Shown one piece after another: positions 1 through 30,592 of a DNA stretch of 64,000 nucleotides (positions within the stretch are counted from its first letter, which is position 1; each line of letters starts with the position of its first letter). The stretch comes from Neocallimastix sp. 'constans' (lineage: Eukaryota), in assembly GCA_050613775.1 (NCBI GenBank), contig JBODTK010000136.1:124001-188000 (forward strand), read 5' to 3'. Below the pieces are notes generated by a model. It made no database searches and was not told where the DNA came from. It was given only the letters and a program-made list of their open reading frames with translations. Position numbers and translations under genes: made by a program.

Positions 1-1083
1 AATTATAGAAAATTAATAACGGACGAAAATGAAAGGTTTAAATTAATTTTAGAAGCTCATAATATTGGCCACGAAGGATATTACAAAACATATCAAAGAC
101 TTAAGAAAAACTTTTATTGGAATCATATGATTAAAGATATCAAAAGAATTGTTAGTAATTGTGAAAAATGCCAATTAAATCGTCCTCAACCATATCCAGA
201 ACCAACCGAAAACCATCCAACTAAAGTGGAGGGTCCCTTTGTGCATTTAGGATTAGATATTATAGGACCGTTACCAAAAACAAGAAATAATAATCAATAT
301 ATTATAGTAACTGTTGATTACTTTACCAAATGGGTTGAAGCCGAACCCACTGAAAACATAACTTCCTCTGATATAATTAAATTTTTAATAAACGTTTTTG
401 CAAGACATGGTGTACCTCAAGTTATTACTACTGATAATGGAGTCCAATTCACTTCTGATATGACTAAAATCTTTCTTGATCTTTATGATGTATATGTTAA
501 ATTTGTAGCTACTTACCACCCTGAATCAAATGGCCTTACTGAAAATCGAAATAAAGAAATTGGAAAATTACTCCGTTTATTAGGAAGGAAAAATCAAGAT
601 TGGGATGAAGTTTTACCTTCTGCTTTATGGGCACTTCGAACTACCAAAAATACAGCTACTGGACATTCTAGTTTTGAATTAGTATATGGAAGAGAAGACC
701 AACAGCCTTATGATATAGCCATAAGAACAATTGAAAATGCAGGTAAATCATATGATGAAATCTTAATGGAAAAATTTGTTCGTCATTATCAATGGACTAG
801 AGAAGCATGCGAAAATGTGAAGAATGCTAACAAGTATTGGGCAACAAGACGAGAAGAACAAATAAGTATGAAAAAAGGAAAAGAATTAAAGGCTGGTGAT
901 CTTGTTCTTGTTAGAAACTTTAGCCGCACTAAGCTAGAACCATATTACAATGGACCATTTAAAATTTTAAAAATTCAATTCAACACGGCAACCCTAATCG
1001 ATCAGAAGACTGGAAAGCAACTCGATAGGAATGTTCACTTTAAAAATTTAGTAAAGTTTAACTCCGCTTACAGAGAAGCTTGA
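1..1083 (+). CDS. pol: Gypsy Pol, partial: integrase (HHCC zinc finger, DDE core, GPF motif)
   Basis: AHNIGH..CEKC, LGLDIIGP, TDNGVQF, PESNGLTENRN, YNGPFKI. Confidence 0.95.
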   Translation, partial: NYRKLITDENERFKLILEAHNIGHEGYYKTYQRLKKNFYWNHMIKDIKRIVSNCEKCQLNRPQPYPEPTENHPTKVEGPFVHLGLDIIGPLPKTRNNNQYIIVTVDYFTKWVEAEPTENITSSDIIKFLINVFARHGVPQVITTDNGVQFTSDMTKIFLDLYDVYVKFVATYHPESNGLTENRNKEIGKLLRLLGRKNQDWDEVLPSALWALRTTKNTATGHSSFELVYGREDQQPYDIAIRTIENAGKSYDEILMEKFVRHYQWTREACENVKNANKYWATRREEQISMKKGKELKAGDLVLVRNFSRTKLEPYYNGPFKILKIQFNTATLIDQKTGKQLDRNVHFKNLVKFNSAYREA

Positions 1084-1101
1084 GTCTTCGTCGGGGCATC
1101 T

Positions 1102-1597
1102 TGATAAGAATGTACTAAATAATGCATTCTTAATTAAATCTACGATTTATTTCTAATACATTATGTGTACATTATTATTTTTGTACTTTAATAAATTTTT
1201 AAATCCAAAGATCAAAAATTAAATCAAAAATTATATTAAACTTTATATTTTTATATTAAATCTTATATTAATAGTAATATTTTTATATATTTAAAACTTA
1301 TATTAGCAATATTAATAATAAATCTTATTTTTTTTATATTAATAATGAAAATTTATATTAATAATATTTTTATATATTGATAATTAAAAATTTATATATT
1401 ATATTTTAACTTTTTATTATAAAATTTTATATCGAAATGTTTTATTTTATATTGAAAAATATTTTATTTTATTAAAAACCTTTATATTAGAATAGTATTT
1501 TTATTTTTATTTGAATATTTTAACAGATTGTAATAAAAATTATAGCCAATTAAATAAATTCTTATTAGTAATATTTTAGATATTTTTAAATAAATAA

Positions 1598-1653
<56 letters not shown>

Positions 1654-1952
1654 TTTTATTAATATTATAAATGTATTTTATTTATATTGTTATAATTAAA
1701 TTTTATATAATTAATTATAAAAATCAATTTAAATTTAATAGTTTTTAAAAAAAAAAAATAAATAAAATGTAATTTAGTGGCAAGAACAACTTTTATGCCT
1801 TGAAAAAAAGTATAAATAGTTGTAAATTTTGCTACTAATTTTTAAATATCATCAAATAAAATCAAATAAATTTATAAATAAAAATAATAAATAAATAAAT
1901 AAAATTTGTGTTTCCTTACTTTATTTTTATTTAATTCTCTAAAACCTTAACA
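1102..1952 (+). repeat. 3' LTR of element A (851 bp)
   Basis: TG...CA termini; homologous to 1956-2824 and 9143-10009 (inverted) and 28462-29317 (direct). Confidence 0.95.
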
Positions 1953-1955
1953 TTG

Positions 1956-2297
1956 TGTTAAGGTTTTAGAGAATTAAATAAAAATAAAGTAAGAAACACA
2001 AATTTTATTTATTTATTTATTATTTTTATTTATAAATTTATTTGATTTTATTTTATTTTATTTTATTTGATTTGATTTTATTTTATTTTTTTGATATTTA
2101 AAAATTAGTAGCAAAATTTACAACTATTTATACTTTTTTTCCAAGGCATAAAAGTTGTTCTTGCCACTAAATTACATTTTATTATTATTTTTCTTTTTAT
2201 ATATAAAAACTATTAAATTTAAATTGATTTTTATAATCAATTATATAAAATTTAATTATAACAATATAAATAAAATACATTTATAATATTAATAAAA

Positions 2298-2336
<39 letters not shown>

Positions 2337-2824
2337 CTATCTAAAATATTACTAATAAGAATTTATTTAATTGGCTAAAATTTTTATTACACTCTGTTAA
2401 AATATTCAAATAAAAATAAAAATACTATTCTAATATAAAGGTTTTTAATAAAATAAAATATTTTTCAATATAAAATAAAACATTTCGATATAAAATTTTA
2501 TAATAAAAGTTAAAATATAATATATAAATTTTTAATTATCAATATATAAAAATATTATTAATACAAATTTTCATTATTAATATAAAAATAAAAAAAATAA
2601 GATTTATTATTAATATTGTTAATATAAGTTTTAAATATATAAAAATATTACTATTAATATAAGATTTAATATAAAAATTATAAAGTTTAATATAATTTTT
2701 GATCTAATTTTTAATCTTTGAATTTAAAAATTTATTAAAGTACAAAAATAATAATGTACACATAATGTATTAGAAATAAATCGTAGATTTAATTAAGAAT
2801 GCATTATTTAGTACATTCTTATCA
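1956..2824 (-). repeat. 3' LTR of element B
   Basis: Matches 9143-10009 by eye except for poly-T length. Confidence 0.95.
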
Positions 2825-2842
2825 AGATGCCCCGACGAAGAC

Positions 2843-5800
2843 TCAAGCTTCTCTGTAAGCGGAGTTAAACTTTACTAAATTTTTAAAATGAACATTCCTA
2901 TCGAGTTGTTTCCCAGTTTTCTGATCGATTAAGGTTGCCGTGTTGAATTGAATTTTTAAAATTTTAAATGGTCCATTGTAATATGGTTCTAGCTTAGTGC
3001 GGCTAAAGTTTCTAACAAGAACAAGATCACCAGCTTTTAATTCTTTTCCTTTTTTCATACTTATTTGTTCTTCTCGTCTTGTTGCCCAATACTTGTTAGC
3101 ATTCTTCACATTTTCGCATGCTTCTCTAGTCCATTGATAATGACGAACAAATTTTTCCATTAAAATTTCATCATACGATTTACCTGCATTTTCAATTGTT
3201 CTTATGGCTATATCATAAGGCTGTTGGTCTTCTCTTCCATATACTAATTCAAAACTAGAATGTCCGGTAGCTGTGTTTTTGGTAGTTCGAAGTGCCCATA
3301 AAGCAGAAGGTAAAACTTCATCCCAATCTTGATTTTTCCTTCCTAATAAACGAAGTAATTTTCCAATTTCTTTATTTCGGTTTTCAGTGAGACCATTGGA
3401 TTCAGGGTGATAGGTAGCTATGAATTTTACATAAACATCATAAAGATCAAGAAAGATTTTAGTCATATCAGAAGTGAATTGGACTCCATTATCTGTAGTA
3501 ATAACTTGAGGCACACCATGTCTTGCAAAAACGTTTATTAAAAATTTAATTATATCAGAGGAAGTTATGTTTTCAGTGGGTTCGGCTTCAACCCATTTGG
3601 TAAAGTAATCAACAGTTACTATAATATATTGATTATTATTTCTTGTTTTTGGTAACGGTCCTATAATATCTAATCCTAAATGCACAAAGGGACCCTCCAC
3701 TTTAGTTGGATGGTTTTCGGTTGGTTCTGGATATGGTTGAGGACGATTTAACTGGCATTTTTCACAATTACTAACAATTCTTTTGATATCTTTAATCATA
3801 TGATTCCAATAAAAGTTTTTCTTAAGTCTTTGATATGTTTTGTAATATCCTTCGTGGCCAATATTATGAGCTTCTAAAATTAATTTAAACCTTTCATTTT
3901 CGTCCGTTATTAATTTTCTATAATTTCCATTGTCGATAAAATAATCTTCACCATCAATAACAGTAAACTTTTCATTAATAAATTCCTTTATAACTTTAGA
4001 TAATAATTCTTCATTATTTCCATTAGTAATTTTTGTTAATAATATCTTTCTCTCTTCCTTACTTTTCATTCTTGAAAGAGCATCAGCTAACACATTCTTT
4101 TTGCCTGATTCATATTTTATATTAATTCCGAGCATACTAGCGGTTAGACACCATCTTGTTTGCCTTGCATTCAAAGGTTCTTTATTCTTAAATAAACCAA
4201 CTAATGGTTTATGATCTGTGTAAATAGTTGTAGGTAATGGATTTCCTTCAATATAAGATTTAAATTTAGTCATACAGTAAAACAAAGCGGTTCCTTCTAA
4301 ATCGGTAATACCATAATTCTTTTCAGCTTTCTTTAAACTTCTACTTATAAAGTGTATTGGATGCTCCTTACCGGTTTCTTCTTCTTTTTGTAAAAGAACT
4401 CCACCAATTCCATTATACGAAGCATCAGTTCTAATGATAAAAGGTTTGTCAAATGACGGAAATTTTAGAATAGGTGCATTGATTAATTTTTCTTTTAGGA
4501 GTTCAAAGCTTTCTTGTTGTTCTTTATTCCATTCATATTTGGTATTCTTTTTCAATAATTTACATAAAGGTGAGGTAATTTGAGCATATTTAGGAATAAA
4601 ATCACGATAATATCCCACTGCTCCTAAAAATGATCTTAATTCATGAAGTGATGAAGGGGCTTCCCACTTCTTAATAGCTGTTATCTTACTTTCCATGGGA
4701 CTTAATCCTTTAGTAGTAAGTTTGTGACCTAATACATCAACTTCAGTTTGAAGAAAATGGCACTTTTCAATATTAATTTTTAACTTGTTTTCTTTAAATA
4801 CTTCTAATACTTGTTTAATATGAATTAAATGTTCTTCGATACTTTTTGAATAGATCAAAACATCATCAATAAATACATAAACAAATTCACCAATAAAAGG
4901 GAATAAAATTTTATTCATTTCTCTTTGGAAGGTTGAGGGAGCTCCAGTAAGTCCAAAAGGCATAACCTTAAATTGATAATTTCCAAACTTAGTAGTGAAA
5001 GTGGTTACTTCAACGCTTTCTTCATCCATTAAGATTTGGTGAAAACCAGAAAATAAATCAAGAGTTGTAAATATTTTAGCTCCTCCGAGACTATCAAAAA
5101 TTTCATCTATATATGGAACTGAATAAGAATCTTTTTCTGTCATATCATTGACTTTTCGGTAGTCAATGCACAAGCGCCACTTTCCATTGTGTTTTAGAAT
5201 GAGTACTACTGGAGATGACCATTCTGAACAGGATGGTTCTATCAATCCTTTCTTAATAAGCTTTGTAAGTTCTTCTTTTAAGATATCTGATTTTAATTTA
5301 GTTAACCTATAACTTCTTAATTTTACTGGCTTTGCATTTGCTTTCAAACGGATCTTATGTGGTGAAAGTTTAGAAGGAGTTAGTTCTTCTGTTGAAGTGG
5401 CAACTATGTCAATCATTTCTTTGAGAATTTTAATAATTTGTTCTTTATAATCTTTATTTAAGGTACTTAAAAATTCATCACTCTCAATAAATTCCATTGG
5501 AGTTAATTCCTTTATAATTTCCTTTTCATTATTCGTTTCTTCAACTTTTCTAATAGTGCAGATTATACTTTCTTCATCATAATATTGATTATTTATTTTA
5601 GCTATTTCTTCGTATTCACTTTCTGACAAAAGTTTACATAGACTGTTTAAGGTTGGATGAATAAATAAACAATGATCGATTTGAGTTTTAAAGTTTATTA
5701 ACATATCATAAAATGAGTCTTCTTTCTCAATAATTCTAAAGTCCGCATTAAATTCATAATTATTAATTTTTACTGGTAATCGAACAATAATTCCTTCCGA

Positions 5801-6853
5801 GTATTCTTCATCTTGTGTTGCTAGTTGGATTCTTCCACGACTTTTTCCAACTGTTTCATATTCACCAGGTAATTTATCAAAATACTGCTTAGTAACGATG
5901 CTTAGGTTACTACAAGAATCAATTAAAAGTTTTCCTAGTACTCCGTCAACACTTGCATCAACCATTGCTAAGTCTTCTTCGGCTACTTCATTACTTTTAC
6001 TTATGTAGCTATGGTCATAGTTATTTACTAATAAAGTTCGTGCTATTACATTGTCTACAGTTCCAATTATTTTAGACTTTTCTAACTTTAAACCTTGAGT
6101 TAATTGTGAACGAATTTTAGGACATGCATTCAAGAGTTGACCTATCGTAATACTGGATTTAAGATTATTTAAATCATCCATAATATTGTAAGGTTCTTTA
6201 TTATTCATCATTTTGATATTCCTTTTTACTAATTGAGTATTTCCATTATTAGTTTCCTTAGTTTTTGTTGAAATTAATTTTTCCAAAGTATTAGTTTTAT
6301 TTTGTTGATTATCTTTATTCATTTCTAGATCTTCTATTTCATTATCGATTACAAGTATATCTTCAGATTCAACTTTTTCCTTTCCTTTTGATGAATAATT
6401 GTTGTTTTCTTCTTTACTTTCTCTTACTCTTGTCATATTTCTTAATTCCTTTTCTTTTTGTTTTTCTTTGTTAATATTTGGTTGAGTTAAAATTGAAGGA
6501 AGTATTTGATTTTTATAAACTTTATTTGGTTTATTATGCAGCTCATTTTCTTTCTTCTTTCTTAAAGCAGGAGTTGCAAAAGGACGTGGATTATCTTTTA
6601 AACTTTTATGTACTTTCTTGGAATTATTTTCTTCTTTTTCGCTGTTATTATCATTCATTTTTCTTTTTACAGCATTTATAATGATATCATCCTCACTTTC
6701 AGTTGTGTCACTAAAATCAGATTCTTCAGATTCTTCGTTAAAGGAATTATTATCAATTGGAGTATTCTTAGTAAAAGTATTATTTTGTAAATTATTTAAT
6801 GAAGCTATTGTTTTGTCATTGGGAGTGCTTCTGCTCCCATTTAGAAGTTTAAA
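2843..6853 (-). CDS. pol: Element B Pol (protease, RT, RNase H, integrase), reached by -1 frameshift from gag
   Basis: LIDSCS protease, FIDD RT, RTDAS RNase H, HHCC/DDE integrase; frame open from slippery site 6847-6853 to the ORF-track Met at 6658. Confidence 0.95.
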   Translation of the reverse strand, partial: FKLLNGSRSTPNDKTIASLNNLQNNTFTKNTPIDNNSFNEESEESDFSDTTESEDDIIINAVKRKMNDNNSEKEENNSKKVHKSLKDNPRPFATPALRKKKENELHNKPNKVYKNQILPSILTQPNINKEKQKEKELRNMTRVRESKEENNNYSSKGKEKVESEDILVIDNEIEDLEMNKDNQQNKTNTLEKLISTKTKETNNGNTQLVKRNIKMMNNKEPYNIMDDLNNLKSSITIGQLLNACPKIRSQLTQGLKLEKSKIIGTVDNVIARTLLVNNYDHSYISKSNEVAEEDLAMVDASVDGVLGKLLIDSCSNLSIVTKQYFDKLPGEYETVGKSRGRIQLATQDEEYSEGIIVRLPVKINNYEFNADFRIIEKEDSFYDMLINFKTQIDHCLFIHPTLNSLCKLLSESEYEEIAKINNQYYDEESIICTIRKVEETNNEKEIIKELTPMEFIESDEFLSTLNKDYKEQIIKILKEMIDIVATSTEELTPSKLSPHKIRLKANAKPVKLRSYRLTKLKSDILKEELTKLIKKGLIEPSCSEWSSPVVLILKHNGKWRLCIDYRKVNDMTEKDSYSVPYIDEIFDSLGGAKIFTTLDLFSGFHQILMDEESVEVTTFTTKFGNYQFKVMPFGLTGAPSTFQREMNKILFPFIGEFVYVFIDDVLIYSKSIEEHLIHIKQVLEVFKENKLKINIEKCHFLQTEVDVLGHKLTTKGLSPMESKITAIKKWEAPSSLHELRSFLGAVGYYRDFIPKYAQITSPLCKLLKKNTKYEWNKEQQESFELLKEKLINAPILKFPSFDKPFIIRTDASYNGIGGVLLQKEEETGKEHPIHFISRSLKKAEKNYGITDLEGTALFYCMTKFKSYIEGNPLPTTIYTDHKPLVGLFKNKEPLNARQTRWCLTASMLGINIKYESGKKNVLADALSRMKSKEERKILLTKITNGNNEELLSKVIKEFINEKFTVIDGEDYFIDNGNYRKLITDENERFKLILEAHNIGHEGYYKTYQRLKKNFYWNHMIKDIKRIVSNCEKCQLNRPQPYPEPTENHPTKVEGPFVHLGLDIIGPLPKTRNNNQYIIVTVDYFTKWVEAEPTENITSSDIIKFLINVFARHGVPQVITTDNGVQFTSDMTKIFLDLYDVYVKFIATYHPESNGLTENRNKEIGKLLRLLGRKNQDWDEVLPSALWALRTTKNTATGHSSFELVYGREDQQPYDIAIRTIENAGKSYDEILMEKFVRHYQWTREACENVKNANKYWATRREEQISMKKGKELKAGDLVLVRNFSRTKLEPYYNGPFKILKIQFNTATLIDQKTGKQLDRNVHFKNLVKFNSAYREA

Positions 6854-7746
6854 GACTTTTTGGAATATATTTCTTTTTTATTTTTTTCCATAATCTTATT
6901 TAATTGAGGGCAATAGTATGAGTAATGACCTTCTTCCTTACAGAAGAAGCAAGTTTTAACGGATAAATTTCTCATTTTCTGGGTTGATTCTTCTATAATA
7001 TCTTGAGGTTTCGGTTTATTATTTGTTTGATTTGTTTGGAAAGTTTCGTTTCTTCTTTTAGGATAAAGTCTTGAAGTAGTACTGTTTTGATTATTTTGAT
7101 TATGTTGGGAATTATTAACATTATAGGTATTAATATTATTGTTCCTTACAGAAAGTCTATCTACTTTCTCGGCAATTTTGAAAGCTTTATCCATACTTAT
7201 ATCATCTTTAAGGGATAATTTCTTCCAGGCTTCATAATTATTTTGAATAGAATCAATATAATCTAGTACACCAATTCGCTTTCTTCTCTTTTTATCAAGT
7301 TTAGTGTACAAAGTTCTATATCTTACATTAAAGTCTTTAATCTTTTCGTTTCTTTTAATTCGCATTGCACGAAGTTCTTTAAGAAGTAAATTTTGGTCTT
7401 CTTTAATACCGTAAAAATTTTCAAGACTTGAAATAATTTTTTCAAGAGAAGGAAATTTATCATCATCAACATTTTCTTCTTCATCATCTTCTTCTTCATC
7501 TGATGAATCATCACTTTCATCATCACTATCTTCTCCCAAATCTTCAATAACGCGTTGTACTTCACCAGAGCTGGTAAGTAAACAAGCATTAAATATTGTT
7601 TCCGGATCTGTGATACCTTGTATCTTGATCCAAAGTTTTAATTCAGTAGCCCAGGACTTTATATCTAAATTGTCCTTGCTAAGCTTCACTATGTCTCGTA
7701 ATTCTTTCTTTAATTCTTTAAAACTTAAAGTACTTTTAGTAGACAT
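6841..7746 (-). CDS. gag: Element B Gag with CCHC zinc knuckle
   Basis: CFFCKEEGHYSYYC; directly upstream of pol; homologous to G gag. Confidence 0.93.
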   Translation of the reverse strand: MSTKSTLSFKELKKELRDIVKLSKDNLDIKSWATELKLWIKIQGITDPETIFNACLLTSSGEVQRVIEDLGEDSDDESDDSSDEEEDDEEENVDDDKFPSLEKIISSLENFYGIKEDQNLLLKELRAMRIKRNEKIKDFNVRYRTLYTKLDKKRRKRIGVLDYIDSIQNNYEAWKKLSLKDDISMDKAFKIAEKVDRLSVRNNNINTYNVNNSQHNQNNQNSTTSRLYPKRRNETFQTNQTNNKPKPQDIIEESTQKMRNLSVKTCFFCKEEGHYSYYCPQLNKIMEKNKKEIYSKKSLNF

Positions 7747-7928
7747 TTCGTTTTTAGTTAATAATTTTTTTATTGTAAATTAACGAGGTTATTAAATACG
7801 AATAAATTTGAAAGTCCAACTTTAAAAATATAATTTAACAAGTAATTTAATATCGAATCAAATTTTAAAACAATATATCTTAGTAATTTTTGAAAATAAT
7901 AATTTTATTTGCTTTCTTTAGTAAGTAT

Positions 7929-8116
7929 AAGCTCGAAATCCTTATCGACAACTTAGTAGAAATTATAAAGCACGAGGTTCTTTTCGACTACTTTTTTAAG
8001 AATAATTTTAAGTTCGAAATCTTTATCGACAACTTAATAGAATAATTTTAAGTTCGAAATCTTTATCGACAACTTAATAGAATATTTTTCAAGCTCGAAA
8101 TCTTTATCGACCACTT
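7929..8116 (-). repeat. Five ~40 bp tandem hairpin repeats in the B 5' leader
   Basis: Unit core AAGTTCGAAATCTTTATCGACAACTT (plus strand) with variants. Confidence 0.85.
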
Positions 8117-8696
8117 GAATTTTGTAATTTAGTATATTTGTAGTAATAAATTTAGAAGCAAAGTTTTATTTATTATTTTCACCTTTCAAAAATTTTTCTT
8201 TTTAAACGATAAATATTGTATTGTTATAGCTAATAAAATTATTAATTAATTATAATTATTAAATACAAAAAAATAATCTTTATTGTCGTACAATCTGATA
8301 GTACACACTGTCTGACGTGCAGCTTACCTAATGGTGTCATGCCACGCGTGTGCCACGATTACTATATTCAATATAAAATATAGCAGTTCAGAGCCCACTA
8401 GCCCAATTACTATGTAGGATAAACTTAATCCGATAATCTATGTACGGAATAAAAAAATTTTAAAAGTATTCAATAATATTTTTATTAACTAATAAAAATT
8501 AACTAAAAACACAATATTTTCAAAGTAAATTAAGATTCTTTTACAGGAATTATTAAACAAATAAAGTATCAGTAATAAAAAAAAATAAAAAAAATTTAAA
8601 TGGCGAAGTTAGCCAAAGTCTGATACTTTATATAATAAAGTGCCTTATAACTAGCACAAAGAAAAGTAAAAAAAAATATATATAAAAAAAAACAAT

Positions 8697-8913
8697 CTTA
8701 CGCCTTCGGTGACGTAAGCTCCTTATTCGCCAGTGCTTGGAAAGTACCCGCACCTTCGTGTGTTGAAACGTTGAAGGCTGAACTATTATTACCGGGTCGG
8801 TAACCAAATACCTTCGTCTACTTTCCAATTAATCTCCAAATTAACTACTATTCAATAACCTACTATGAATAGAGTTAATTTGTTGCTATCTGAGAATACA
8901 CTGTGTATGAGCT
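8697..8913 (-). ncRNA. Putative structured cis-RNA in the B leader (homolog in D)
   Basis: Motifs TCATAYACAGTGT, GCACTGG and CTTAYR-TCACCGAAGG-YRTAAG shared with 22089-22324, with compensatory changes. Confidence 0.7.
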
Positions 8914-9118
8914 CTATCCGCTCCTTGTTATAATTTTACAAAATTTGTTTTTTTTTTTGAATCTTAATTTTACTTATTTAAAAAAAATTTTTTTTTATAT
9001 ATATATCAAACAAGCGCCATAGGTTAATCAAAGGATTAACGACTTACTTGTTTATCAATATAAAATAAAAAAAAATTAAAAAAAAAATCTATGTTATTTA
9101 CTATTATTTCTATTTAAT

Positions 9119-9136
9119 TCCCCGATATCGCCACCA
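9119..9136 (-). promoter_or_regulatory. Primer-binding site of B (tRNA 3'-end type, tRNA identity not determined)
   Basis: TGGTGGCGATATCGGGGA on the minus strand, 6 nt after the 5' LTR. Confidence 0.8.
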
Positions 9137-9142
9137 TATAAA

Positions 9143-9484
9143 TGTTAAGGTTTTAGAGAATTAAATAAAAATAAAGTAAGAAACACAAATTTTATTTATT
9201 TATTTATTATTTTTATTTATAAATTTATTTGATTTTATTTTATTTTATTTTATTTGATTTGATTTTATTTTATTTTTTTGATATTTAAAAATTAGTAGCA
9301 AAATTTACAACTATTTATACTTTTTTTCCAAGGCATAAAAGTTGTTCTTGCCACTAAATTACATTTTATTATTATTTTTCTTTTTATATATAAAAACTAT
9401 TAAATTTAAATTGATTTTTATAATCAATTATATAAAATTTAATTATAACAATATAAATAAAATACATTTATAATATTAATAAAA

Positions 9485-9521
<37 letters not shown>

Positions 9522-10009
9522 CTATCTAAAATATTACTAATAAGAATTTATTTAATTGGCTAAAATTTTTATTACACTCTGTTAAAATATTCAAATAAAA
9601 ATAAAAATACTATTCTAATATAAAGGTTTTTAATAAAATAAAATATTTTTCAATATAAAATAAAACATTTCGATATAAAATTTTATAATAAAAGTTAAAA
9701 TATAATATATAAATTTTTAATTATCAATATATAAAAATATTATTAATACAAATTTTCATTATTAATATAAAAATAAAAAAAATAAGATTTATTATTAATA
9801 TTGTTAATATAAGTTTTAAATATATAAAAATATTACTATTAATATAAGATTTAATATAAAAATTATAAAGTTTAATATAATTTTTGATCTAATTTTTAAT
9901 CTTTGAATTTAAAAATTTATTAAAGTACAAAAATAATAATGTACACATAATGTATTAGAAATAAATCGTAGATTTAATTAAGAATGCATTATTTAGTACA
10001 TTCTTATCA
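9143..10009 (-). repeat. 5' LTR of element B
   Basis: Direct repeat of 1956-2824. Confidence 0.95.
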
Positions 10010-10475
10010 ATTGTGATACGGTACCACCATAAATACCATAATTTAATGAAACTTAGGTTAGGAATTATTTGATAAAATCTTATTGGTTAATAATAATTTA
10101 GTAATATTATATATAGTTAGTAAATAATAATAATTTAAAGAATGGTTCTTTTATTAATATTAATTTAGTTTATTAATAATTTAACCTATAAACATGTTTA
10201 TTAGTATAGTTTAGTGTAGTTTTATATTTAGTTTACATTAATAATATGAGAGATTTTAGTAATTAATTATATTTTATTGAATGATTTAATTATATTTTAA
10301 CTAATTAACAACTATTTATATTGATGATGTATTTTTATTGATGAATGATAATAAATAAATAAAATAAATAAACTAAATATTAAAGTGTGAATATTATTAT
10401 TGTGTGTATTATTCTATATAATATTAGAATATATTATTTTGTCAATTATTCCCTACTGTTATCGTCCAAATAAAA

Positions 10476-19585: not shown

Positions 19586-21683
19586 AATGATAATAATAAT
19601 ATTATTATAAAAAAAAAAAAAAAAAAAAAAAAATTGGAAATTTTATTTTTTATTATTATTAATTCGTTTTTAAATTTTATTTTATTATTATCAATTTTTC
19701 AGTCAAATTTCAATTTCAAAATTTCGAAATTTTCAAAATTTTCAAAATTCAAAAACATAGCTATGTTACACTTACAACTATCAATTTATAATCAAATTTT
19801 ATTCATAAATTCATTAATTATTATAATTTTCAATTTTTTTAAAGTTAATGCATAAAATTAAAAAGTTAATTGAAATTAAAATTTCAAAATTTCAATTTCA
19901 AAAATTTTTAATCAAAAACATTTAAAAATGGTACCATCATATTCTTAAACATCAATTTTTATAACAAAATTTTAATTTTATTAAATTTTAGAAATTTCAA
20001 AATTTCAATGAAATGGTCACTTATAAAGGGTTTCCTTTTAAAATTTAAAAGGACTCAAGTGGCCTTCCTCCTTTATAAATTAAAAAAATTTTAATTTAAG
20101 AAATTTCAAAAAATTTTTAACAAAAAATTTAGTCCTCCTTATCGTTACACAAAAATCGTCTTGAATCCGATTTTTATAGGAGGGCATTGTTGAAATTATA
20201 ACTGAATTGAAATCTCAATTTCAGTTATTCACATTTCAATATACATTTAATTAATAATTAATATAAATTCTTATTTAGTATTTAAAGAATTATCTTAGGC
20301 CTAATAATTCTGAAAATATTAATAAATAAGATTTATATTAATAATTTCAATTATTTACATATGACGTCACATGTATTTATTTATATTATGTTTATATATA
20401 TGTTTATATCATATATATTAATTACTATTTTTAATTATTCAAATTAATTATACAAATTAAATTTATTTAATTATATTAAATATTTTAAACATATCGATAT
20501 TGTTATTATTTTAATATTTTATTAATATTCATTTTACTATATTATTATTATCTTATAATTAAATACTATTATTATGTAACTTACAAAGTATAAAAGAAAG
20601 ATGTAAAAATCTATCTTTTATGTTCTTTGTAAGGTTATTGTATTTACAATAATTATATACTAATAATTCAATAAATAAATATTTTCATAAATCCTTCAAA
20701 GAAATTATTATTTAAAATATTCTTAGATATTAAGTGTTTAAATAACTTAACTATTTATCTTATATTATTTTTATATTATTATTAATTAATTATTGTTGGA
20801 TTATTAATATATAATTCAACATATTAACCTAGTAACGTTATTAATCATAAAACTATTTTATATCTTAATTTTAACAATATTAAAGTAAAAAATATCATTA
20901 ACAATTATAAATAAATAATAAAAAATTGAATATTAAAATATTAGTTATAGAATATTATAAAGTTAAATAAAAATAATTAGATGTATTAAAAAATCATGTA
21001 TTAATTATATTATTTAATATTGTAAAATTTTTATATTATATTTTAATAATTTAGAAAATTTAAGCTTATTATATTTTTATTACTATATTTTTATTATTAA
21101 ATTTTTATTATTAAATTTTTATTATTAATTTTTTTATTTTTATTTTTAATCCAATCAAATAAATATTTTATTAGTATAAAAAAGAACAAAGTAACACAAT
21201 ACTTTTGTTCTCTCCCTTTTTTTCTTACGACTTTATTATTATATTATTTTTTTAATATTTTCTAAAAGTTAAATAATAAATTAAATAGTTTAAAATAAAT
21301 TAAAATTTATTAAATAGTTTTTTCTAAATTTAATGTTTTAAAAGTGTTTAATTAATAGTTTTTTGTGTTTAGTGTATAATATTAAGATAAGTATAGTATA
21401 AAATTAGTTTAGTAATAGATTAGTTGTATTAAACATTTTATAGAAATAGTAATAGATTTAGAGAAATTGTTTAGTTTAGATTAGAATAGTTTAGATTAAG
21501 ATATTAGTTTAAGTTATTTTAACTTAGTTTAGATTCTTTTAGATTAGGATAGTTTAGACTAAAATTAGAGTAGTTTATTAATTAATTTAGGTTTAGAATT
21601 AGAGAATAATATTTTAAATTTTTCCTTATTATTAGAATATATTATTTTATTAATAAAATCTTCAGATCTTGTACCATAAAATT

Positions 21684-21700
21684 TGGCGAGCTATGCAGGA
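21684..21700 (+). promoter_or_regulatory. Primer-binding site of D, tRNA-Arg-like
   Basis: TGGCGAGCTATGCAGGA 7 nt after the LTR; resembles the TGGCGAGCC-type tRNA-Arg PBS. Confidence 0.75.
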
Positions 21701-21758
21701 CCTGAAGAGATAAAATAATATGAAAATAATAATTTGAGAAAATTTTAATAATTAATAA

Positions 21759-21805
<47 letters not shown>

Positions 21806-21905
21806 AATTTAATCAATAAATAAATAATAAATAAATAATTAAATAAATAATAAGATAAATAAAATAAATAAATAAATAAATAAAATAATAATAATAAATA
21901 AATAA

Positions 21906-21960
<55 letters not shown>

Positions 21961-22004
21961 TTATTCTAAAATATTATTAATAGTAGTTATAAAAAATTAA
22001 TAAT

Positions 22005-22043
<39 letters not shown>

Positions 22044-22088
22044 TTATTTTTACTTTTTTGAGAATATTAAAATCAAAAAGTATAATAA

Positions 22089-22324
22089 TTCATATACAGT
22101 GTTTAAACCGTAAGAAAATTAATTAATAATAAGTTAGGGTGATTCCAATTTATTATTAATTAAGGTTTTTAATCGATCTCGTGAGTGCGTGAATACGTCC
22201 CAAAGTAATAATTATACTCCCCACGGCACTTTCCGTAGTTTATCAACTATCCGAGTGTTGTCAGGGTTTTTGGACAAGATCGAGCACTGGAACAATAATG
22301 AACTTATATCACCGAAGGTATAAG
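22089..22324 (+). ncRNA. Putative structured cis-RNA in the D leader (homolog in B)
   Basis: Same motifs and pairings as 8697-8913 on the minus strand. Confidence 0.7.
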
Positions 22325-22699: not shown

Positions 22700-23695
22700 A
22701 TGAAAATTTTAGAATTGGAAAGGCTATTACCCAGACTTAACGAAAGCGCAAGGGATGTCGATTCATGGATCGATGAATTTTCAAGAATAATGGCACTGGC
22801 AGATATCACCAATCCAAGAAGCATTCTTACCTGGGCAATGGAGTGTGTAGAAGGAAAGTTGAGGGGCACTTTACAAGAACTACATACAATAGATGAGGAA
22901 GGTAATGAACATTTTCCATCAATGAGAGAAATAAAAGAAGCAATTGAAAATTCATTAGAAGTAACTCCACAAGAGAAATGTAAAAGACTACAACGAATGA
23001 AAATTCAAAGAGGAGAAAGCATAAAAAACTTTAATTGGAGATATAGGAAAATTTATAACAGTCTACCAAAATTGTACCAAACATTTATAACAATAGAAGA
23101 TTATGCTGATTCGATTATCTACCGTCCTTATGCTAGATCACAAGTAATAACACAACGATGTATAGATCTTGAAGATGCTTTTGAAGAAGCAGAGTTAGCT
23201 GAAAGAGCTGAAGAAGGAGGAAATCTTAGAAATGAAACCGTGATGATGACAGTATTTAATTCTCAACCATTCTATTACCGAAGTAACACTCATCCATTTA
23301 AGCAATTCAATTCTCCAAGTTATAATTATAATTATAATGGAAGACAATTTTACATTAAGAAAACTCCTCGAAATTATACAAATTATAATGAAAATAGAGA
23401 ATTTACAACTAATAATTTTAATACTAAATTCAATTCTAAAAATGAAATTATGCAAAGTAATAATTTAGAAAATACCACACAAAATATTAAAGATAGTAAA
23501 ATAAGAAATAACTTGGTAAATAATGAAATCAAACAAGCCAGAAATACATTTAATTCTGAGAAATCCCATATTATTTGTTACCGTTGTGGACAACAAGGAC
23601 ACATTTATAAACTATGTCCTTATTCCTTTAAAGAATTTGCTAAACTAAGAAATCAAAATAATACAATAAATTCAAACAATCATTTAAACTTCTAA
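22700..23695 (+). CDS. gag: Element D Gag with CCHC knuckle
   Basis: CYRCGQQGHIYKLC; ends HLNF over T TTA AAC. Confidence 0.93.
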   Translation: MKILELERLLPRLNESARDVDSWIDEFSRIMALADITNPRSILTWAMECVEGKLRGTLQELHTIDEEGNEHFPSMREIKEAIENSLEVTPQEKCKRLQRMKIQRGESIKNFNWRYRKIYNSLPKLYQTFITIEDYADSIIYRPYARSQVITQRCIDLEDAFEEAELAERAEEGGNLRNETVMMTVFNSQPFYYRSNTHPFKQFNSPSYNYNYNGRQFYIKKTPRNYTNYNENREFTTNNFNTKFNSKNEIMQSNNLENTTQNIKDSKIRNNLVNNEIKQARNTFNSEKSHIICYRCGQQGHIYKLCPYSFKEFAKLRNQNNTINSNNHLNF

Positions 23696-26600
23696 ACGGG
23701 AGAAGGGAAACTCCCAGTAATCAAACCAATGATGAAATAGTAGCTACTGCAGTTAGAAGAAAAGGAAAACAAGTTTTTGAAAAACCATATTCAAGAGATA
23801 AAAGAAAACAAAATGAAAATAAAGTAAATGATAATATTTCTAATTCTAATAATATCATACAAGAAGATAATGAAGATATAGAAATTGAAACCAACGAAAT
23901 AAATACAATATCTAACACTCCTATAAATGAAACCGAAAGACTTGAGGAGATTGATGTGTCAGTTATTGCGCAACCCTCAATCAACAAAGCTAAACGAAAT
24001 TCAAAGAAACAAAAAGAAAAAGAAATATTAGAAAGCACTAAGAATCTCGAGGTTAGTTCTAATAAAGAATCTAGAGTTAAACTTCCAAGTGTAGAATTAG
24101 AAGAGAAGAAAGTTAAAACCAACAATCCCAATAAACAAATAACCATTATGGAAGGTCAATCAAAATATGATATTTGTAAAGACATAAGTACTAGGTTTGC
24201 TAATATTACATTACCTCAATTATTGGATGTTAGTCCTAAACTCCGTGCTGATATTGTAAAGGCCTTAAAATTAAAAACTACAGAAACAATTAAAGAGACT
24301 CCTGAAGAAGTTGTATTATCTGCTATACGTAGGGAAGATGTTGCTACAGTTGAATGTTTAATTAATGGAGTCCAAGGTATTGCATTTTTAGACACAGGCG
24401 CAAGCATTAATATTATTACTAGACAATTTTTAAACAAGTTAGGAGATGTAAAACCAATTGGATTTGTTAAAAATAATATTGTTCAATTATTATCTAAAGA
24501 GAATGTTAATACTGAAATCTACTTGCTAAAAGTTCAACTTGGAGATTTAGCTATTCATGATATATTCCGAGTTATAGATAATCACCAAAACCTATTTGAT
24601 GTTTTAATTAGCTATAAAACACTTAAAGAAAATAATTTATTTATTAATCCTATTAATAATAATTTGTGCATAATGAAAGAAAATAACAAATGGATGTGTG
24701 TCAAAAATCTTTGCAAAGAAGAGAAAGGAAATGTTATTAGTGATGATGAAGATGCTGAATCAATAATTATATATGATAAAACAAATTCTGATATTAATAA
24801 TAATTCCTATCTTTATTGCTTTGTTAATGAAATTGATAATATTAATGATAACTTAACAATAACTCAAAATAAAATAGAAGACTCTAAAACAATAACTAAA
24901 GAAGTAGATATCATTAATGAAAATGGTGTTTTTGAAAAAGATCAACTCCTGCAAAATATACTTAAAGGAATTCCAAAAAAGCTAAGAAATGAAGTAAAAA
25001 AGTTATTTGATGAATATAATACTATTCTTGCCACAAAAATTGATGAGTTAAAACCAACTAAATTGTTACCTCATAGTATTCAACTCGAGCCTAACGCTAA
25101 ACCGATTAAACAGAGATGTTATCGACTTTCTAAAGTTCAAGCATTAGCTCTTAAAAAGGAATTAGAAAAACTTATAAAAAATAAACTAATTGAACCATCA
25201 CACTCCCCTTGGTCTTCTCCCGTTATTTTAGTGCCTAAGAAAAATAAACAGTGGAGAATATGTATAGATTTTCGAAAACTAAACAATCTTACTATTAAAG
25301 ATGCATATTCGTTACCGCTTATAGATGAAATTTTATTTTCTATCGGGAAAAAAGTTAAAGTTTTTACTACGATTGATTTATTTTCGGGATTTCATCAGAT
25401 CCCTATGAACAAAGAAGATATTCCTAAAACTAGCTTTGCTACAATGTATGGTAACTATCAATTCTTAGTTATGCCCTTTGGTTTATGCAATGCCCCAGGT
25501 ACTTTTCAAAGGGAAATGAATAGAATATTCTTTCCTCTTATTGGAGTATGCATGTTTGTTTATATCGATGATCTAGTTATATTTTCACCCTCCTTTGAAC
25601 AACATATTATAGATATTAAGAAAGTGTTTGATATTATCAAAGAAAATGGATTAAAAATTAACTTAGAAAAATGTCATTTTTTTAAAATAAAAGTCGAATT
25701 GTTAGGACATACTTTATCAATTAATGGTATTTCCCCTATTCAAGCTAAAGTTCAAGTCATATTAGAATGGATACCACCAAAAAATGTTACACAATTACAA
25801 TCTTTCCTTGGTGCAGTGGGTTATTACCGTAAATTTATTCTTAACTTCGCTAATATAGCAAAACCATTATTTAAACTTGTTAAAAAAGGTGTAAAGTTTG
25901 TCTGGGGTAAAGAACAAGAAGAAAGCTTTAATGAGTTGAAACTAAAATTAGCATCTGCTCCTATTCTTGTTATGCCTGACTTTGAAAAACAATTTATAAT
26001 CAGAACGGATGCCTCTTTCGATGGTATTGGAGGTGTTTTACTTCAGAAAGATGAGAATGGTATTGAAAAGCCAATTCACTTCGTAAGTCGCTCTTTAAAA
26101 CCGGCGGAAAAGAATTATTCAATAACTGATCTTGAAGGAACTGCCGCGACTTACTGCGTTCAAAAATTTAAATCTTATATTTCTGGAAATAAATATGAAA
26201 CTCTTTTATTCACCGATCATAAACCTTTAGTTGGACTTTTCAAAAATAAAGAAACTAACAATTCTAGACAAACTCGATGGGTATTACTTCTATCAATGCT
26301 AAAAGTTAAAGTCTTATATGAACCTGGAAAGAAAAATGTCATCGCTGATGCACTTTCTAGATTATCAACAAAAGAAAATACAATATTAACAACTGTTACT
26401 GAAGAGATAAATGAAAATAATCCGTATAACTTACTTACAAAATTTAAAGATAAATTTACAATAATTAATAACGAAGAATATTATAAAGACCATGGAAAAC
26501 TTAGAAAAGTTATAAAAAATCAAAACGAAAAAATTGATTTAATACTAAAAGCTCACAAAGTTGGTCACGAAGGAGTATTTAAAACTTACAATAGACTTAA

Positions 26601-27594
26601 ACGTGACTACTATTGGATCAACATGATACTTGACGTTAAATACATTGTCAGAACTTGTGATAGGTGTCAACACTTTAGATCGCAATCTTTTAATAACCAA
26701 ACAGAAGATATTGCTACTCAACCTGGTTTACCATTTACGAAAGTTGGCTTGGATATAGTAGGTCCACTTCCTACTTCAAGAAAAGGAAATAAATATATAA
26801 TAGTTTTAGTAGATTACTTAACAAAGTGGGTTGAAGCAGAACCAACCCAAAATATTGATTCAGATGATGTAATAGAATTTTTATCCAAGATTTTTGCTCG
26901 ATTCGGAATACCAGAAATATTAGTAACTGATAACGGTCCACAGTTCTGTTCTGATAAAACAAAAGCATTCTTAGACTTATATGGTGTTTATGTTAACTTC
27001 GTTGTTACTTATCATCCAGAATCTAATGGTCAAGTAGAAAATCGAAACAAAGAGATAGGCAAATACCTTAGATTACTTTGTAATAAAAATACATCAATAT
27101 GGGATGAAATGCTACCTAGTGCTTTATGGGCCTTGCGTACTTGTAAAAATGAAACAACTAAATTTTCAAGTTTTGAATTGTTATATGGCCGACGTGACCT
27201 TCAGCCGTTTGAATTACAATTAAACTTAGATAAAAAGGAAAATTATGAAAGTGATGATGAATTTTTAATTAGAAGATTTACAAAACATTATAAATGGATC
27301 AAGGAAGCCATAAATAATATTCAAACAGCAAACAAAATCTGGGAAGATAGAAGAAAACAAGTAAAAAGACTTAAAGCTAATTATAAACCAGGAGATCTAG
27401 TATTAATTAAATATATTAATAGAAGAAAACTTGATCCATACTTCTTAGGTCCTATGAAAATTGTTAAAAAACAATTCAATACTGTAACGTTATGTGATCC
27501 ATTAACAAACGAAATTGCTGAAAGAAATGTCCACTTAAAGAATATTATACCTTATAGACTATGCGAAATTGAGACTTCAAGGGACGAAGTCTGA
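23683..27594 (+). CDS. pol: Element D Pol (PR-RT-RH-IN), -1 frame
   Basis: FLDTGA, YIDD, RTDAS, HHCC, DDE; frame open from the slippery site. Confidence 0.95.
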   Translation, partial: FKLLNGRRETPSNQTNDEIVATAVRRKGKQVFEKPYSRDKRKQNENKVNDNISNSNNIIQEDNEDIEIETNEINTISNTPINETERLEEIDVSVIAQPSINKAKRNSKKQKEKEILESTKNLEVSSNKESRVKLPSVELEEKKVKTNNPNKQITIMEGQSKYDICKDISTRFANITLPQLLDVSPKLRADIVKALKLKTTETIKETPEEVVLSAIRREDVATVECLINGVQGIAFLDTGASINIITRQFLNKLGDVKPIGFVKNNIVQLLSKENVNTEIYLLKVQLGDLAIHDIFRVIDNHQNLFDVLISYKTLKENNLFINPINNNLCIMKENNKWMCVKNLCKEEKGNVISDDEDAESIIIYDKTNSDINNNSYLYCFVNEIDNINDNLTITQNKIEDSKTITKEVDIINENGVFEKDQLLQNILKGIPKKLRNEVKKLFDEYNTILATKIDELKPTKLLPHSIQLEPNAKPIKQRCYRLSKVQALALKKELEKLIKNKLIEPSHSPWSSPVILVPKKNKQWRICIDFRKLNNLTIKDAYSLPLIDEILFSIGKKVKVFTTIDLFSGFHQIPMNKEDIPKTSFATMYGNYQFLVMPFGLCNAPGTFQREMNRIFFPLIGVCMFVYIDDLVIFSPSFEQHIIDIKKVFDIIKENGLKINLEKCHFFKIKVELLGHTLSINGISPIQAKVQVILEWIPPKNVTQLQSFLGAVGYYRKFILNFANIAKPLFKLVKKGVKFVWGKEQEESFNELKLKLASAPILVMPDFEKQFIIRTDASFDGIGGVLLQKDENGIEKPIHFVSRSLKPAEKNYSITDLEGTAATYCVQKFKSYISGNKYETLLFTDHKPLVGLFKNKETNNSRQTRWVLLLSMLKVKVLYEPGKKNVIADALSRLSTKENTILTTVTEEINENNPYNLLTKFKDKFTIINNEEYYKDHGKLRKVIKNQNEKIDLILKAHKVGHEGVFKTYNRLKRDYYWINMILDVKYIVRTCDRCQHFRSQSFNNQTEDIATQPGLPFTKVGLDIVGPLPTSRKGNKYIIVLVDYLTKWVEAEPTQNIDSDDVIEFLSKIFARFGIPEILVTDNGPQFCSDKTKAFLDLYGVYVNFVVTYHPESNGQVENRNKEIGKYLRLLCNKNTSIWDEMLPSALWALRTCKNETTKFSSFELLYGRRDLQPFELQLNLDKKENYESDDEFLIRRFTKHYKWIKEAINNIQTANKIWEDRRKQVKRLKANYKPGDLVLIKYINRRKLDPYFLGPMKIVKKQFNTVTLCDPLTNEIAERNVHLKNIIPYRLCEIETSRDEV

Positions 27595-27611: not shown

Positions 27612-28457
27612 TGTTACGGTACAATTAAATAAAGAAAAATTAAACTATTTAAAGAAAATATTAAAGTAAAAAATATCATTAACAATTATAAATAAATAAT
27701 AAAAAATTGAATATTAAAATATTAGTTATAGAATATTATAAAGTTAAATAAAAATAATTAGATGTATTAAAAAATCATGTATTAATTATATTATTTAATA
27801 TTGTAAAATTTTTATATTATATTTTAATAATTTAGAAAATTTAAGCTTATTATATTTTTATTACTATATTTTTATTATTAAATTTTTATTATTAAATTTT
27901 TATTATTAATTTTTTTATTTTTATTTTTAATCCAATCAAATAAATATTTTATTAGTATAAAAAAGAACAAAGTAACACAATACTTTTGTTCTCTCCCTTT
28001 TTTTCTTACGACTTTATTATTATATTATTTTTTTAATATTTTCTAAAAGTTAAATAATAAATTAAATAGTTTAAAATAAATTAAAATTTATTAAATAGTT
28101 TTTTCTAAATTTAATGTTTTAAAAGTGTTTAATTAATAGTTTTTTGTGTTTAGTGTATAATATTAAGATAAGTATAGTATAAAATTAGTTTAGTAATAGA
28201 TTAGTTGTATTAAACATTTTATAGAAATAGTAATAGATTTAGAGAAATTGTTTAGTTTAGATTAGAATAGTTTAGATTAAGATATTAGTTTAAGTTATTT
28301 TAACTTAGTTTAGATTCTTTTAGATTAGGATAGTTTAGACTAAAATTAGAGTAGTTTATTAATTAATTTAGGTTTAGAATTAGAGAATAATATTTTAAAT
28401 TTTTCCTTATTATTAGAATATATTATTTTATTAATAAAATCTTCAGATCTTGTACCA
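27612..28457 (+). repeat. 3' LTR of element D
   Basis: TGTTAC...GTACCA; uninterrupted copy with a single ATATT at the E target site. Confidence 0.95.
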
Positions 28458-28461
28458 ACTG

Positions 28462-28946
28462 TGATAAGAATGTACTAAATAATGCATTCTTAATTAAATC
28501 TACGATTTATTTCTAATACATTATGTGTACATTATTATTTTTGTACTTTAATAAATTTTTAAATCCAAAGATCAAAAATTAAATCAAAAATTATATTAAA
28601 CTTTATATTTTTATATTAAATCTTATATTAATAGTAATATTTTTATATATTTAAAACTTATATTAGCAATATTAATAATAAATCTTATTTTTTTATTTTT
28701 ATATTAATAATGAAAATTTGTATTAATAATATTTTTATATATTGATGATTAAAAATTTATATATTATATTTTAACTTTTATTATAAAATTTTATATCGAA
28801 ATGTTTTATTTTATATTGAAAAATATTTTATTTTATTAAAAACCTTTATATTAGAATAGTATTTTTATTTTTATTTGAATATTTTAACAGATTGTAATAA
28901 AATTTATAGCCAATTAAATAAATTCTTATTAGTAATATTTTAGATA

Positions 28947-29003
<57 letters not shown>

Positions 29004-29317
29004 TTTTATTAATATTATAAATGTATTTTATTTATATTGTTATAATTAAATTTTATATAATTGATTATAAAATTCAATTTAAATTTAATAGTTTTTATAA
29101 AAAAAAAAAAAAATAAATAAAATGTAATTTAGTGGCAAGAACAACTTTTATGCCTTGAAAAAAAGTATAAATAGTTGTAAATTTTGTTACCAATTTTTAA
29201 AAAATCATCAAATAAAATCAAATAAATTTAATAAAATAAATAAATAAAATAAATAAATAAATAAATAAAATTTGTGTTTCTTACTTTATTTTTATTTAAT
29301 TCTCTAAAACCTTAACA
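28462..29317 (+). mobile_element. Solo LTR of the A/B family
   Basis: Homologous to 1102-1952; flanked by ACTG (28458-28461, 29318-29321); no PBS follows. Confidence 0.9.
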
Positions 29318-29340
29318 ACTGAAGATTTCGTTACATTAAC

Positions 29341-29497
29341 AATAATTTTATTTATTCGTCAAACAGAGTGTTTGGAATAAAAGATTCATTAATATTACAA
29401 AAATTTTTATTTATTCGTCAAACAGAGTGTTTGGAATAAAGGATTAATTAATATTATAACAATATTATTTTTTTTTTTTTGTTAAACAGAGTGTTTG
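29341..29497 (+). repeat. Three ~59 bp tandem hairpin repeats in the G leader
   Basis: Core TTTATTCGTCAAACAGAGTGTTTGGAATAAA twice plus one degenerate copy. Confidence 0.85.
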
Positions 29498-29674
29498 AAA
29501 AAAAAAAAAATAAATTATACTATTTACAATTAATATATTTAATATATATATATAAATTTTTTTTTTACGAATACTTGGTAGTTTTGTTACTTTTCTTTAA
29601 TCAAACTACTTAAAATAAAATATTAATAAATAAATTAAATTCAAATTAGTTAAATACTAAAAATTCTGGTAAAA

Positions 29675-30592
29675 ATGAGTAACATTCATTTCAGAGAACT
29701 AAAGAAAAAATTAAAGGATATCGAAAAATTGTCTAAGGACAATTTAGATATCAAGACCTGGTGTTCTGATCTTGAACTTTGGGTAGAACTTGGTGAAGTG
29801 ACAGATGAAAGAAAAATTTTCTTGGCTTGCGTTTTAACTTCAACAGGAGAACCGAGACAAATTATTCAAGAACTCGGAAATCAAATTAATACCAATGATA
29901 GTTCAATTGACAATGATGAAGAAGATAGCTCTTCAGGCTCGGAATCTTCATCTGAAAAGTATTATCCTTCCTTACAAGAGATAACTAATGCATTAGAAGA
30001 ATTTTATGGCACTAAAGAAGACCAAAATAATTTATTAAGGGAATTACGGTCTTTAAAAATAAAAAGAAATGAAAGGGTAAAGGATTTTAATGTCAAATTT
30101 AAAACCTTATACTTAAAACTAGATAAAAAGAGAAAAAGACATGTCAGTGTATTAGATTATGTTGATGCTTTAGAAAACAACCAAGAAGCTTGGAAACGAG
30201 TAGCATTGGAAGATGATTTAACTCTCTCAAAAGCTTATCAAATCGCTGAAAAGGTAGATCGTTTGCAAAATAGGTCAACTCAAGGAAGTACCCAACCAAG
30301 GCAAAATTTTACAACTAATAATTCTTTTTCTAATAACTATTCTCGTTCTAATCTTAGAAGTAGTAATACTAACAATTATAATAACCAAAAAAGTTTTGAT
30401 AAATTAAGAATTGAAAGGTCTAAAGAAGGAAAAGAAATGGAGGATTTAACAAGAAAAATGAAAAATCTAACTATCAAAGCATGTTATTTCTGTAAAGAAC
30501 AAGGCCATTTTCAGAGTAACTGTCCCAAACTTCGTAAAATTATACAGAAAAACCGGGAAGAATTAATTCAAGATGATCATTTAAATCAGTAA
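29675..30592 (+). CDS. gag: Element G Gag with CCHC knuckle
   Basis: CYFCKEQGHFQSNC; clear homology to B gag. Confidence 0.93.
   Translation: MSNIHFRELKKKLKDIEKLSKDNLDIKTWCSDLELWVELGEVTDERKIFLACVLTSTGEPRQIIQELGNQINTNDSSIDNDEEDSSSGSESSSEKYYPSLQEITNALEEFYGTKEDQNNLLRELRSLKIKRNERVKDFNVKFKTLYLKLDKKRKRHVSVLDYVDALENNQEAWKRVALEDDLTLSKAYQIAEKVDRLQNRSTQGSTQPRQNFTTNNSFSNNYSRSNLRSSNTNNYNNQKSFDKLRIERSKEGKEMEDLTRKMKNLTIKACYFCKEQGHFQSNCPKLRKIIQKNREELIQDDHLNQ

Follow-up and report, generated by a model that had tools for sequence, protein, structure and literature searches.

LTR-retrotransposon leader structures are generally thought to be element-specific. Small ribozymes combine invariant single-stranded residues with short helices and a variable arm (the hammerhead carries a CUGANGA core on a three-way junction), and Idefix is said to possess a switch by which it is either translated or left untranslated. 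The sharing of one RNA between translation and packaging has been framed as a major question (in the accessible text of PMC3735527). As the accessible parts of the respective reports describe them, IRES sequences in some errantiviruses are a precedent for translational control from the leader (PMC3383448), the palindrome through which Ty3 dimerises is 6 nt long and GC-rich (PMC11381356), structured ENE motifs recur in many plant and fungal LTR elements and set a precedent for a shared RNA (PMC12501189), and ribozymes are common in non-LTR elements (HDV-like ones in R2, L1Tc and RTE) as well as in Penelope-like elements and retrozymes, which carry hammerheads (PMC6765202). The retroelement-leader RNA motif described here is real, folded and conserved across several Ty3/Gypsy lineages.

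The window (the whole stretch of DNA analysed, 64 kb long and 23.6% GC) carries nested LTR elements and LINEs, together with a host L21e gene whose closest named matches are chytrid proteins (79%). Two of its elements, B and D, contain the motif. Element B, on the minus strand, comprises a 5' LTR at 9144–10010 (matching a solo LTR at 28462–29317), a likely tRNA primer-binding site at 9121–9136 that starts with TGG 7 nt past the LTR boundary, a gag-like open reading frame (ORF) of 301 amino acids at 6841–7746, and pol (reverse transcriptase (RT), RNase H and integrase) at 2843–6658. Element D, on the plus strand, comprises an 801-nt 5' LTR at 20876–21676, a likely primer-binding site at 21684–21699 that differs in sequence from that of B, a gag-like ORF of 331 amino acids at 22700–23695, and pol (protease, RT, RNase H and integrase) at 23956–27594; its 5' LTR is 100% identical to the 3' LTR at 27657–28457, so its insertion was probably recent. 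The two elements are 26–29% identical in Gag, 46% in pol and 59% in RT, and among named organisms B's Gag has relatives in Neocallimastix, Anaeromyces and an Orpsp1 genome, which makes the host very likely an anaerobic gut fungus. By start-codon listing, gag and pol are separate ORFs in B, D and a further element, E (gag–pol junctions at 6658–6841, 23695–23956 and 30592–30733, respectively). Directly ahead of E's leader lies a B-type LTR (28460–29318, 92% identical to B's) with no primer site following; the pols of E and B share only 66% identity, and E's 3' flank lacks a match to the B-type LTR, which is either a solo insertion or part of a chimera. Positions 1–3925 form a large inverted repeat (arms 94% identical) that comprises the 3' half of B together with its LTR; close to the middle of the repeat lies a fragment of B's primer-site region. 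The arrangement reflects either a rearrangement or an assembly artefact.

A preliminary description, made from the letters of the window, had proposed a conserved unit of 220–240 nt; four copies (B, D and two homologs from other contigs, L007 and L124) instead delimit a two-part core of ~55 nt around an exchangeable insert. The core consists of two covarying helices (P2 and P5), A-rich linkers and an ACCGAA loop, its 5' half measuring 15 nt and its 3' half 38–41 nt, and is 75–91% identical among the four copies, in which P2 carries an insert of 120–181 nt that is mostly unalignable. In B, the whole structured RNA occupies 8697–8923 of the minus strand, running from a local 5' hairpin, P1 (8909–8923; 4 bp with a 7-nt loop), through the conserved linker AUAYA and the 5' strand of P2 (8898–8908), the 161-nt variable insert with its long AU hairpin and branched domain (8737–8897), and the 3' strand of P2 with the conserved A-rich linker (8719–8736), to the terminal hairpin P5 (8697–8718; 8 bp, loop ACCGAA). 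In D, the corresponding RNA lies at 22088–22324 of the plus strand and divides into the core's 5' half (the linker together with the 5' strand of P2, 22088–22102), a 181-nt variable insert whose long hairpin has structure-keeping variants (22103–22283), and the 3' half (P2 3' strand, linker and P5, 22284–22324). The core is upstream of gag and in the same orientation in all four elements; it is downstream of the primer-binding site in B and D, the two elements whose available sequence includes that site, and there it falls outside the LTR, starting ~220 nt into the leader of B and ~410 nt into that of D.

Every word named for the B and D copies in the preliminary description was found at its place and in the order given, and the leaders outside the motif are indeed dissimilar (B and D give no blastn match at E < 1 × 10−3). 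Exact copies of the two longest words, TCACCGAAGG and TCATAYACAGTGT, occur in the 64-kb window at the B and D sites only, and with 2–3 mismatches their counts there equal chance. Local alignment of the B and D motif regions scored 47, against a maximum of 32 among 1,000 composition-preserving shuffles. The inserts behave differently from the core: alignment exceeded shuffles in one of six pairs (B with L007, at the long hairpin), and the B and D inserts aligned no better than shuffles (P = 0.56). The word GTAATAAT of the branched domain is present in both B and D, as had been noted, but is limited to them; since neither L007 nor L124 contains it and the inserts of B and D align like shuffled sequence, the branched domain is variable and not part of what is conserved.

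The homologs were recovered with a search pattern built from the 3' half of the core alone, which gave at least 120 matches in a metagenome scan, while a stricter pattern applied to contigs of prokaryote genomes gave 5 loci, for 125 matches together. Among the 125 matches listed, 115 of which had at least 250 nt of upstream sequence, L007 and L124 alone possess the 5' half, and the other 123 lack it. Because the 5' half was not built into the pattern, its presence in these two is an out-of-sample test of the core, and in both, P2 is fully paired (6 of 6) via a U-A to A-U change. The pattern was too loose for the metagenomes, where one homolog (L007) stood among the 120 loci listed; the five loci on genome contigs comprised one new homolog (L124), an identical copy of D on a contig that begins within the insert (L126) and three chance matches. 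Both L007 and L124 precede a Retrotrans_gag/Ty3_capsid ORF (in L124, within a single gag-pol frame). The Gags of these two share 69% identity and match neither Gag B nor Gag D at E < 0.01. The motif is thus shared by B and D, as first reported, without being restricted to those two families, L007 and L124 adding a third Gypsy lineage. Weak matches to a model of the 3' core (L048, L012, L037 and L125) were rejected as pattern-selected and lacking the 5' half.

Gypsy-like contigs, some of them near-identical to window elements, are binned in four prokaryote genomes (G001, G002, G148 and G211; L124, L126 and L140–L153), and L124 and L126 are most likely misplaced fungal contigs; the core could also serve as a marker of fungal retroelement contigs misplaced in prokaryote bins. 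Screening for RT turned up Gypsy-like contigs in 3 of 314 genomes in one set and in none of 401 in another. Patterns run on a viral collection matched 3, 0 and 6 loci, every one of them put down to chance, and an RT query gave none; a phage collection searched by blastn contained no match. A model of the 3' core recovered the two known copies alone in the window (next best E = 0.68) and no new match among 151 + 9 prokaryote genomes. The motif was absent from eight Gypsy-like contigs, a weakly sampled absence because only the outer element of L152 has an apparently whole leader from primer site to AUG; that element and element C of the window, both with short leaders, gave no model match. The motif is therefore not universal among Gypsy elements. 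Words of the B leader were more widespread, with half or more present in 20 of 24 sequencing runs among the matches listed, representing 17 studies. Contigs were compared from four runs for B and four for D, which together amount to six distinct runs. The B motif is covered with 0–1 differing nucleotides by long contigs in X7, X9 and X12, and in X14 at its 3' end only; loose contig ends at 8733–8738 reveal further families with the same 3' core and a different insert.

The window copies are predicted to be unusually stable, none of 200 shuffles matching either of them (z = −4.32 for B, at about −66 kcal/mol, and z = −3.54 for D); z is −2.29 for L124 and −0.85 for the whole of L007, whose stability is not unusual. 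Sense-strand folds surpassed antisense folds by 6.6–11.9 kcal/mol in all four copies. The proposed pairing of CAGTGT with GCACTGG was borne out: P2 (CAGTGT/GCACTG) emerged from separate predictions for B, D, L007 and L124 (its pairs having probabilities of 0.71–0.99), and 24 of 24 of its cells are paired, with one pair changed on both sides. The terminal hairpin was likewise predicted independently in all four (0.8–1.0, except for the lowest three pairs in L007), with 31 of 32 cells paired and three pairs changed on both sides, and so stands as a covarying helix; the 10-nt loop first assigned to it does not, since P5 is an 8-bp stem with the 6-nt loop ACCGAA. Slid controls for both helices were 26–46% paired. 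These covariation counts come from four related sequences and are suggestive, and the shuffle controls overstate significance because the full sequences number four, of which three have similar cores (82–91%).

The end pair of P2 is U-G, U-A or C-G among copies and variants, D-family variants including a change from U-G to C-G at this position and one from A-U to G-C in the long hairpin (both sides assigned to the same contig by equal depth); in one D-family variant, two P5 pairs become U-U. Among the D-family rows listed, 5 of 57 core positions are variable and 33 of 181 insert positions. The 5' YUC strand has two competing pairings. Local pairing in P1 is predicted at 0.5–1.0 in B, L007 and L124 and at about 0 in D, and pairing with the 3' linker in an outer helix at 0–0.34. 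The outer helix of the preliminary description (AGCTC/GAGCT in B) is uncertain: 11 of its 12 cells are paired, but its predicted probability is low, in B it runs into the terminal stem, and one of its pairs is mismatched in L007. The local hairpin GAGC/GCTC folds in its place in B, L007 and L124, which is why the B copy was extended to 8923.

Several other structural and functional candidates were considered and rejected. A pseudoknot between the ACCGAA loop and the insert gave P values of 0.06–0.94, and pseudoknots inside the B and D inserts involve sequence that differs in L007 and L124. A tRNA D-loop mimic in the long hairpin was seen in B and L007 alone (L124 has no such loop; ARAGORN found 0 genes), an antisense UUCG reading was disfavoured by the better folding of the sense strand, and resemblances to pistol, twister-sister, U6 and IRE were not kept across the four copies. 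Splicing control was rejected, with no joints in the B contigs and one 73-nt skip in one D contig of a DNA run. Rfam 15 gave no match at the gathering threshold across the 64-kb window (the lowest E-values being 0.86 near B and 7.5 near D) and none at E ≤ 5 in L007 and L124. Together with the covarying pairs that the homologs add, this upholds the earlier view of a selected, folded RNA outside known families.

The leaders that carry the motif are long (0.7–1.4 kb) and poor in AUG codons. Downstream of the motif, B has 1 AUG where 11.0 are expected (950 nt), L124 has 0 where 6.3 are expected (812 nt), and the four leaders together have 1 in 2,315 nt. Upstream, motif-free stretches are also poor (0 in 301 nt in L007; two AUGs each in B and D, one of each at the primer-binding site), as is a 357-nt fragment of the E leader without the motif (0 AUG); one of four non-coding controls was AUG-low too (12 versus 20.3 expected, P = 0.008). 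An AUG lies within the D core.

The same leaders hold other features. A second GC-rich foldable block in the B leader (8285–8435, minus strand; z = −1.98; no Rfam match) has variants in contigs from other runs and parts shared with other families, and may be a second RNA motif of the leader. Ahead of gag, B also carries four to five imperfect tandem units of ~40 nt (~7925–8120, minus strand), and the E leader contains three short-hairpin copies (29359–29498) whose letters loosely resemble the core minus its insert and which the 3'-core model left unscored. Further GC-rich islands without an Rfam match occur in L007 (1205–1290, minus strand) and in the downstream leader of L124, and these two share a short block ~80–100 nt past the motif. 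Long poly(A) tracts, whose lengths may depend on assembly, lie upstream of the motif in the window (21750–22040) and at the starts of L007 and L124, and also at the start of L150.

What might such a core do? We tentatively favour, from sequence and predicted structure, a role as a platform on which a host factor docks and decides between translation and packaging of the full-length RNA, a reading to which we would give somewhat less than an even chance. The linkers and the ACCGAA loop would pack into a binding surface whose partner would be host-encoded or small, because the core is 75–91% identical while Gags are at most 29% identical between lineages. Ribosomes would enter at the structure, or pass across it, and then scan a nearly AUG-free leader to gag, and the YUC strand, with its two competing pairings, could toggle the RNA between translated and packaged states. 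Long AUG-poor leaders suggest ribosome scanning, and a structure of the stability predicted for B in the scanning path would need entry, bypass or opening, hence our preference for this form of control. Against it are the AUG depletion, which is not motif-specific, the AUG within the D core and the variable distance to gag. The last of these, a fivefold range of 185–957 nt from loop to gag AUG among the four elements, also disfavours a classical IRES with a fixed distance to the start codon.

A packaging or dimerisation signal, in which unpaired purines would be candidate contacts for the Gag zinc knuckle and genomes would pair via a palindrome, is possible and would be the next reading to consider, though we think it rather unlikely. 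Its location downstream of the primer-binding site matches the positions of Ty1 and Ty3 cis-signals, at least as given in the accessible part of PMC4974528, and a GAGCUC palindrome occurs within P1 of B, L007 and L124, mostly in the stem. D lacks GAGCUC, however, and the ACCGAA loop is not self-complementary, so that a palindromic dimerisation loop is not conserved among the four copies; short-leader elements also do without the motif. Coevolution with a specific Gag would, moreover, hardly predict a near-invariant core across Gags of such low identity. Conservation of the core far exceeds that of Gag or the primer site, which points instead to a host partner, a small ligand or catalysis; the persistence of the core across hardly alignable capsids suggests either a common partner or an activity of the RNA itself.

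The motif could define an RNA class of its own, catalytic or ligand-sensing, with a ~55-nt core and an exchangeable insert, that has spread between Ty3/Gypsy lineages of anaerobic gut fungi and splits the full-length RNA into translated and packaged pools; we regard this as unlikely, but if true it would place a ribozyme or riboswitch within the leader of autonomous LTR retrotransposons. The catalytic version taken by itself, a new small ribozyme class (self-cleaving, or branching or ligating) that tolerates an insert and would yield an RNA pool that is translatable and not reverse-transcribable, appears less probable still. Its layout of invariant single-stranded residues, short covarying helices and one freely variable arm is ribozyme-like. 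No counterpart was seen in Rfam or among the core motifs of hammerhead, hairpin and HDV-like ribozymes: the hammerhead core CUGANGA is absent from both strands of all four copies, as is the hairpin-ribozyme loop B strand AGAAACA from all four, and the HDV-like L3 consensus has one sense match in L007, one antisense match in D and none in B or L124, with a helix order that on inspection does not fit a nested double pseudoknot. A cut at this position would presumably part R-U5-PBS from the genome, and single contigs from X7 (an RNA run) and X12 (possibly an RNA run) span the B motif from end to end without a break, and beyond it their downstream spacing stays within 4 nt of that in the window, a weak argument against cleavage because contigs hide ends and DNA may be present. 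Constitutive self-cleavage in the leader RNA is thus weakly disfavoured; partial cleavage would be compatible with such contigs.

Nuclear export or stabilisation of the unspliced genomic RNA, in the manner of retroviral transport elements or ENEs, would likewise explain conservation across lineages through a host partner. It seems to us an improbable role, as ENEs have U-rich internal loops and, in Evade, a 3' UTR location (in the accessible text of PMC12501189), whereas the gut-fungal core is A-rich and in the 5' leader.

We consider it very unlikely that the motif acts as a metabolite-sensing, riboswitch-like control tying element expression to the state of the fungus, even with one strand capable of two competing pairings, conserved junction residues and words in common with the glycine aptamer: the glycine-aptamer strand CUYUCAGG is absent from all four copies, Rfam is silent, no expression platform is evident, and the compared B contigs contain no splice joints. 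Passive carriage, either of a piece of host non-coding RNA or of a DNA-level element without a role for the retrotransposon RNA, is scarcely credible given four copies in the same orientation upstream of gag and covariation and G-U pairs that point to an RNA structure kept in place.

Among described systems, the glycine riboswitch aptamer (RF00504) shares with the motif CUCUGG and CACCGAAGG in the same order; a true glycine aptamer (L093) was caught by the same 3'-half pattern and scored 49.5 bits, and L007 gave no such hit. In the core, however, covariation places these two words in other helices, and the partner strand is absent. Like the 5' cis-acting structures of Ty1 and Ty3, the core lies near the 5' end of the RNA and past the primer-binding site, but those structures are element-specific and partly inside GAG, to judge from the available portions of PMC4974528 and PMC11381356, whereas the gut-fungal core is common to lineages with unrelated Gags and has no palindrome common to all copies. 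The errantivirus leader IRES is another case in which a Gypsy-type leader has been proposed to control gag translation (PMC3383448, in its accessible part), a likeness drawn from description and to be set against the variable spacing to gag seen here. With ENEs the core has in common that it is a compact RNA motif present in several LTR retrotransposon lineages (many plant and fungal elements for ENEs), but ENEs, as the accessible text of PMC12501189 has it, are U-rich and bind the poly(A) tail from the 3' UTR. Retroelement ribozymes, as far as PMC6765202 is accessible, share a small conserved core, a variable arm and a place near the RNA 5' end; the gut-fungal core differs in that it forms part of the genomic RNA in autonomous LTR elements, where cleavage would cost the RNA its primer site.

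A literature search covering titles and abstract openings of freely accessible papers returned no description of the motif. It is, then, a previously unlisted RNA of a known broad kind, the structured retroelement leader. For that kind, the core provides a small, defined and testable handle on how one RNA is split between translation and packaging, with four natural variants carrying different inserts that can be used for probing and cleavage assays. Its unusual trait relative to the known systems is a small core with an exchangeable insert that is common to lineages.
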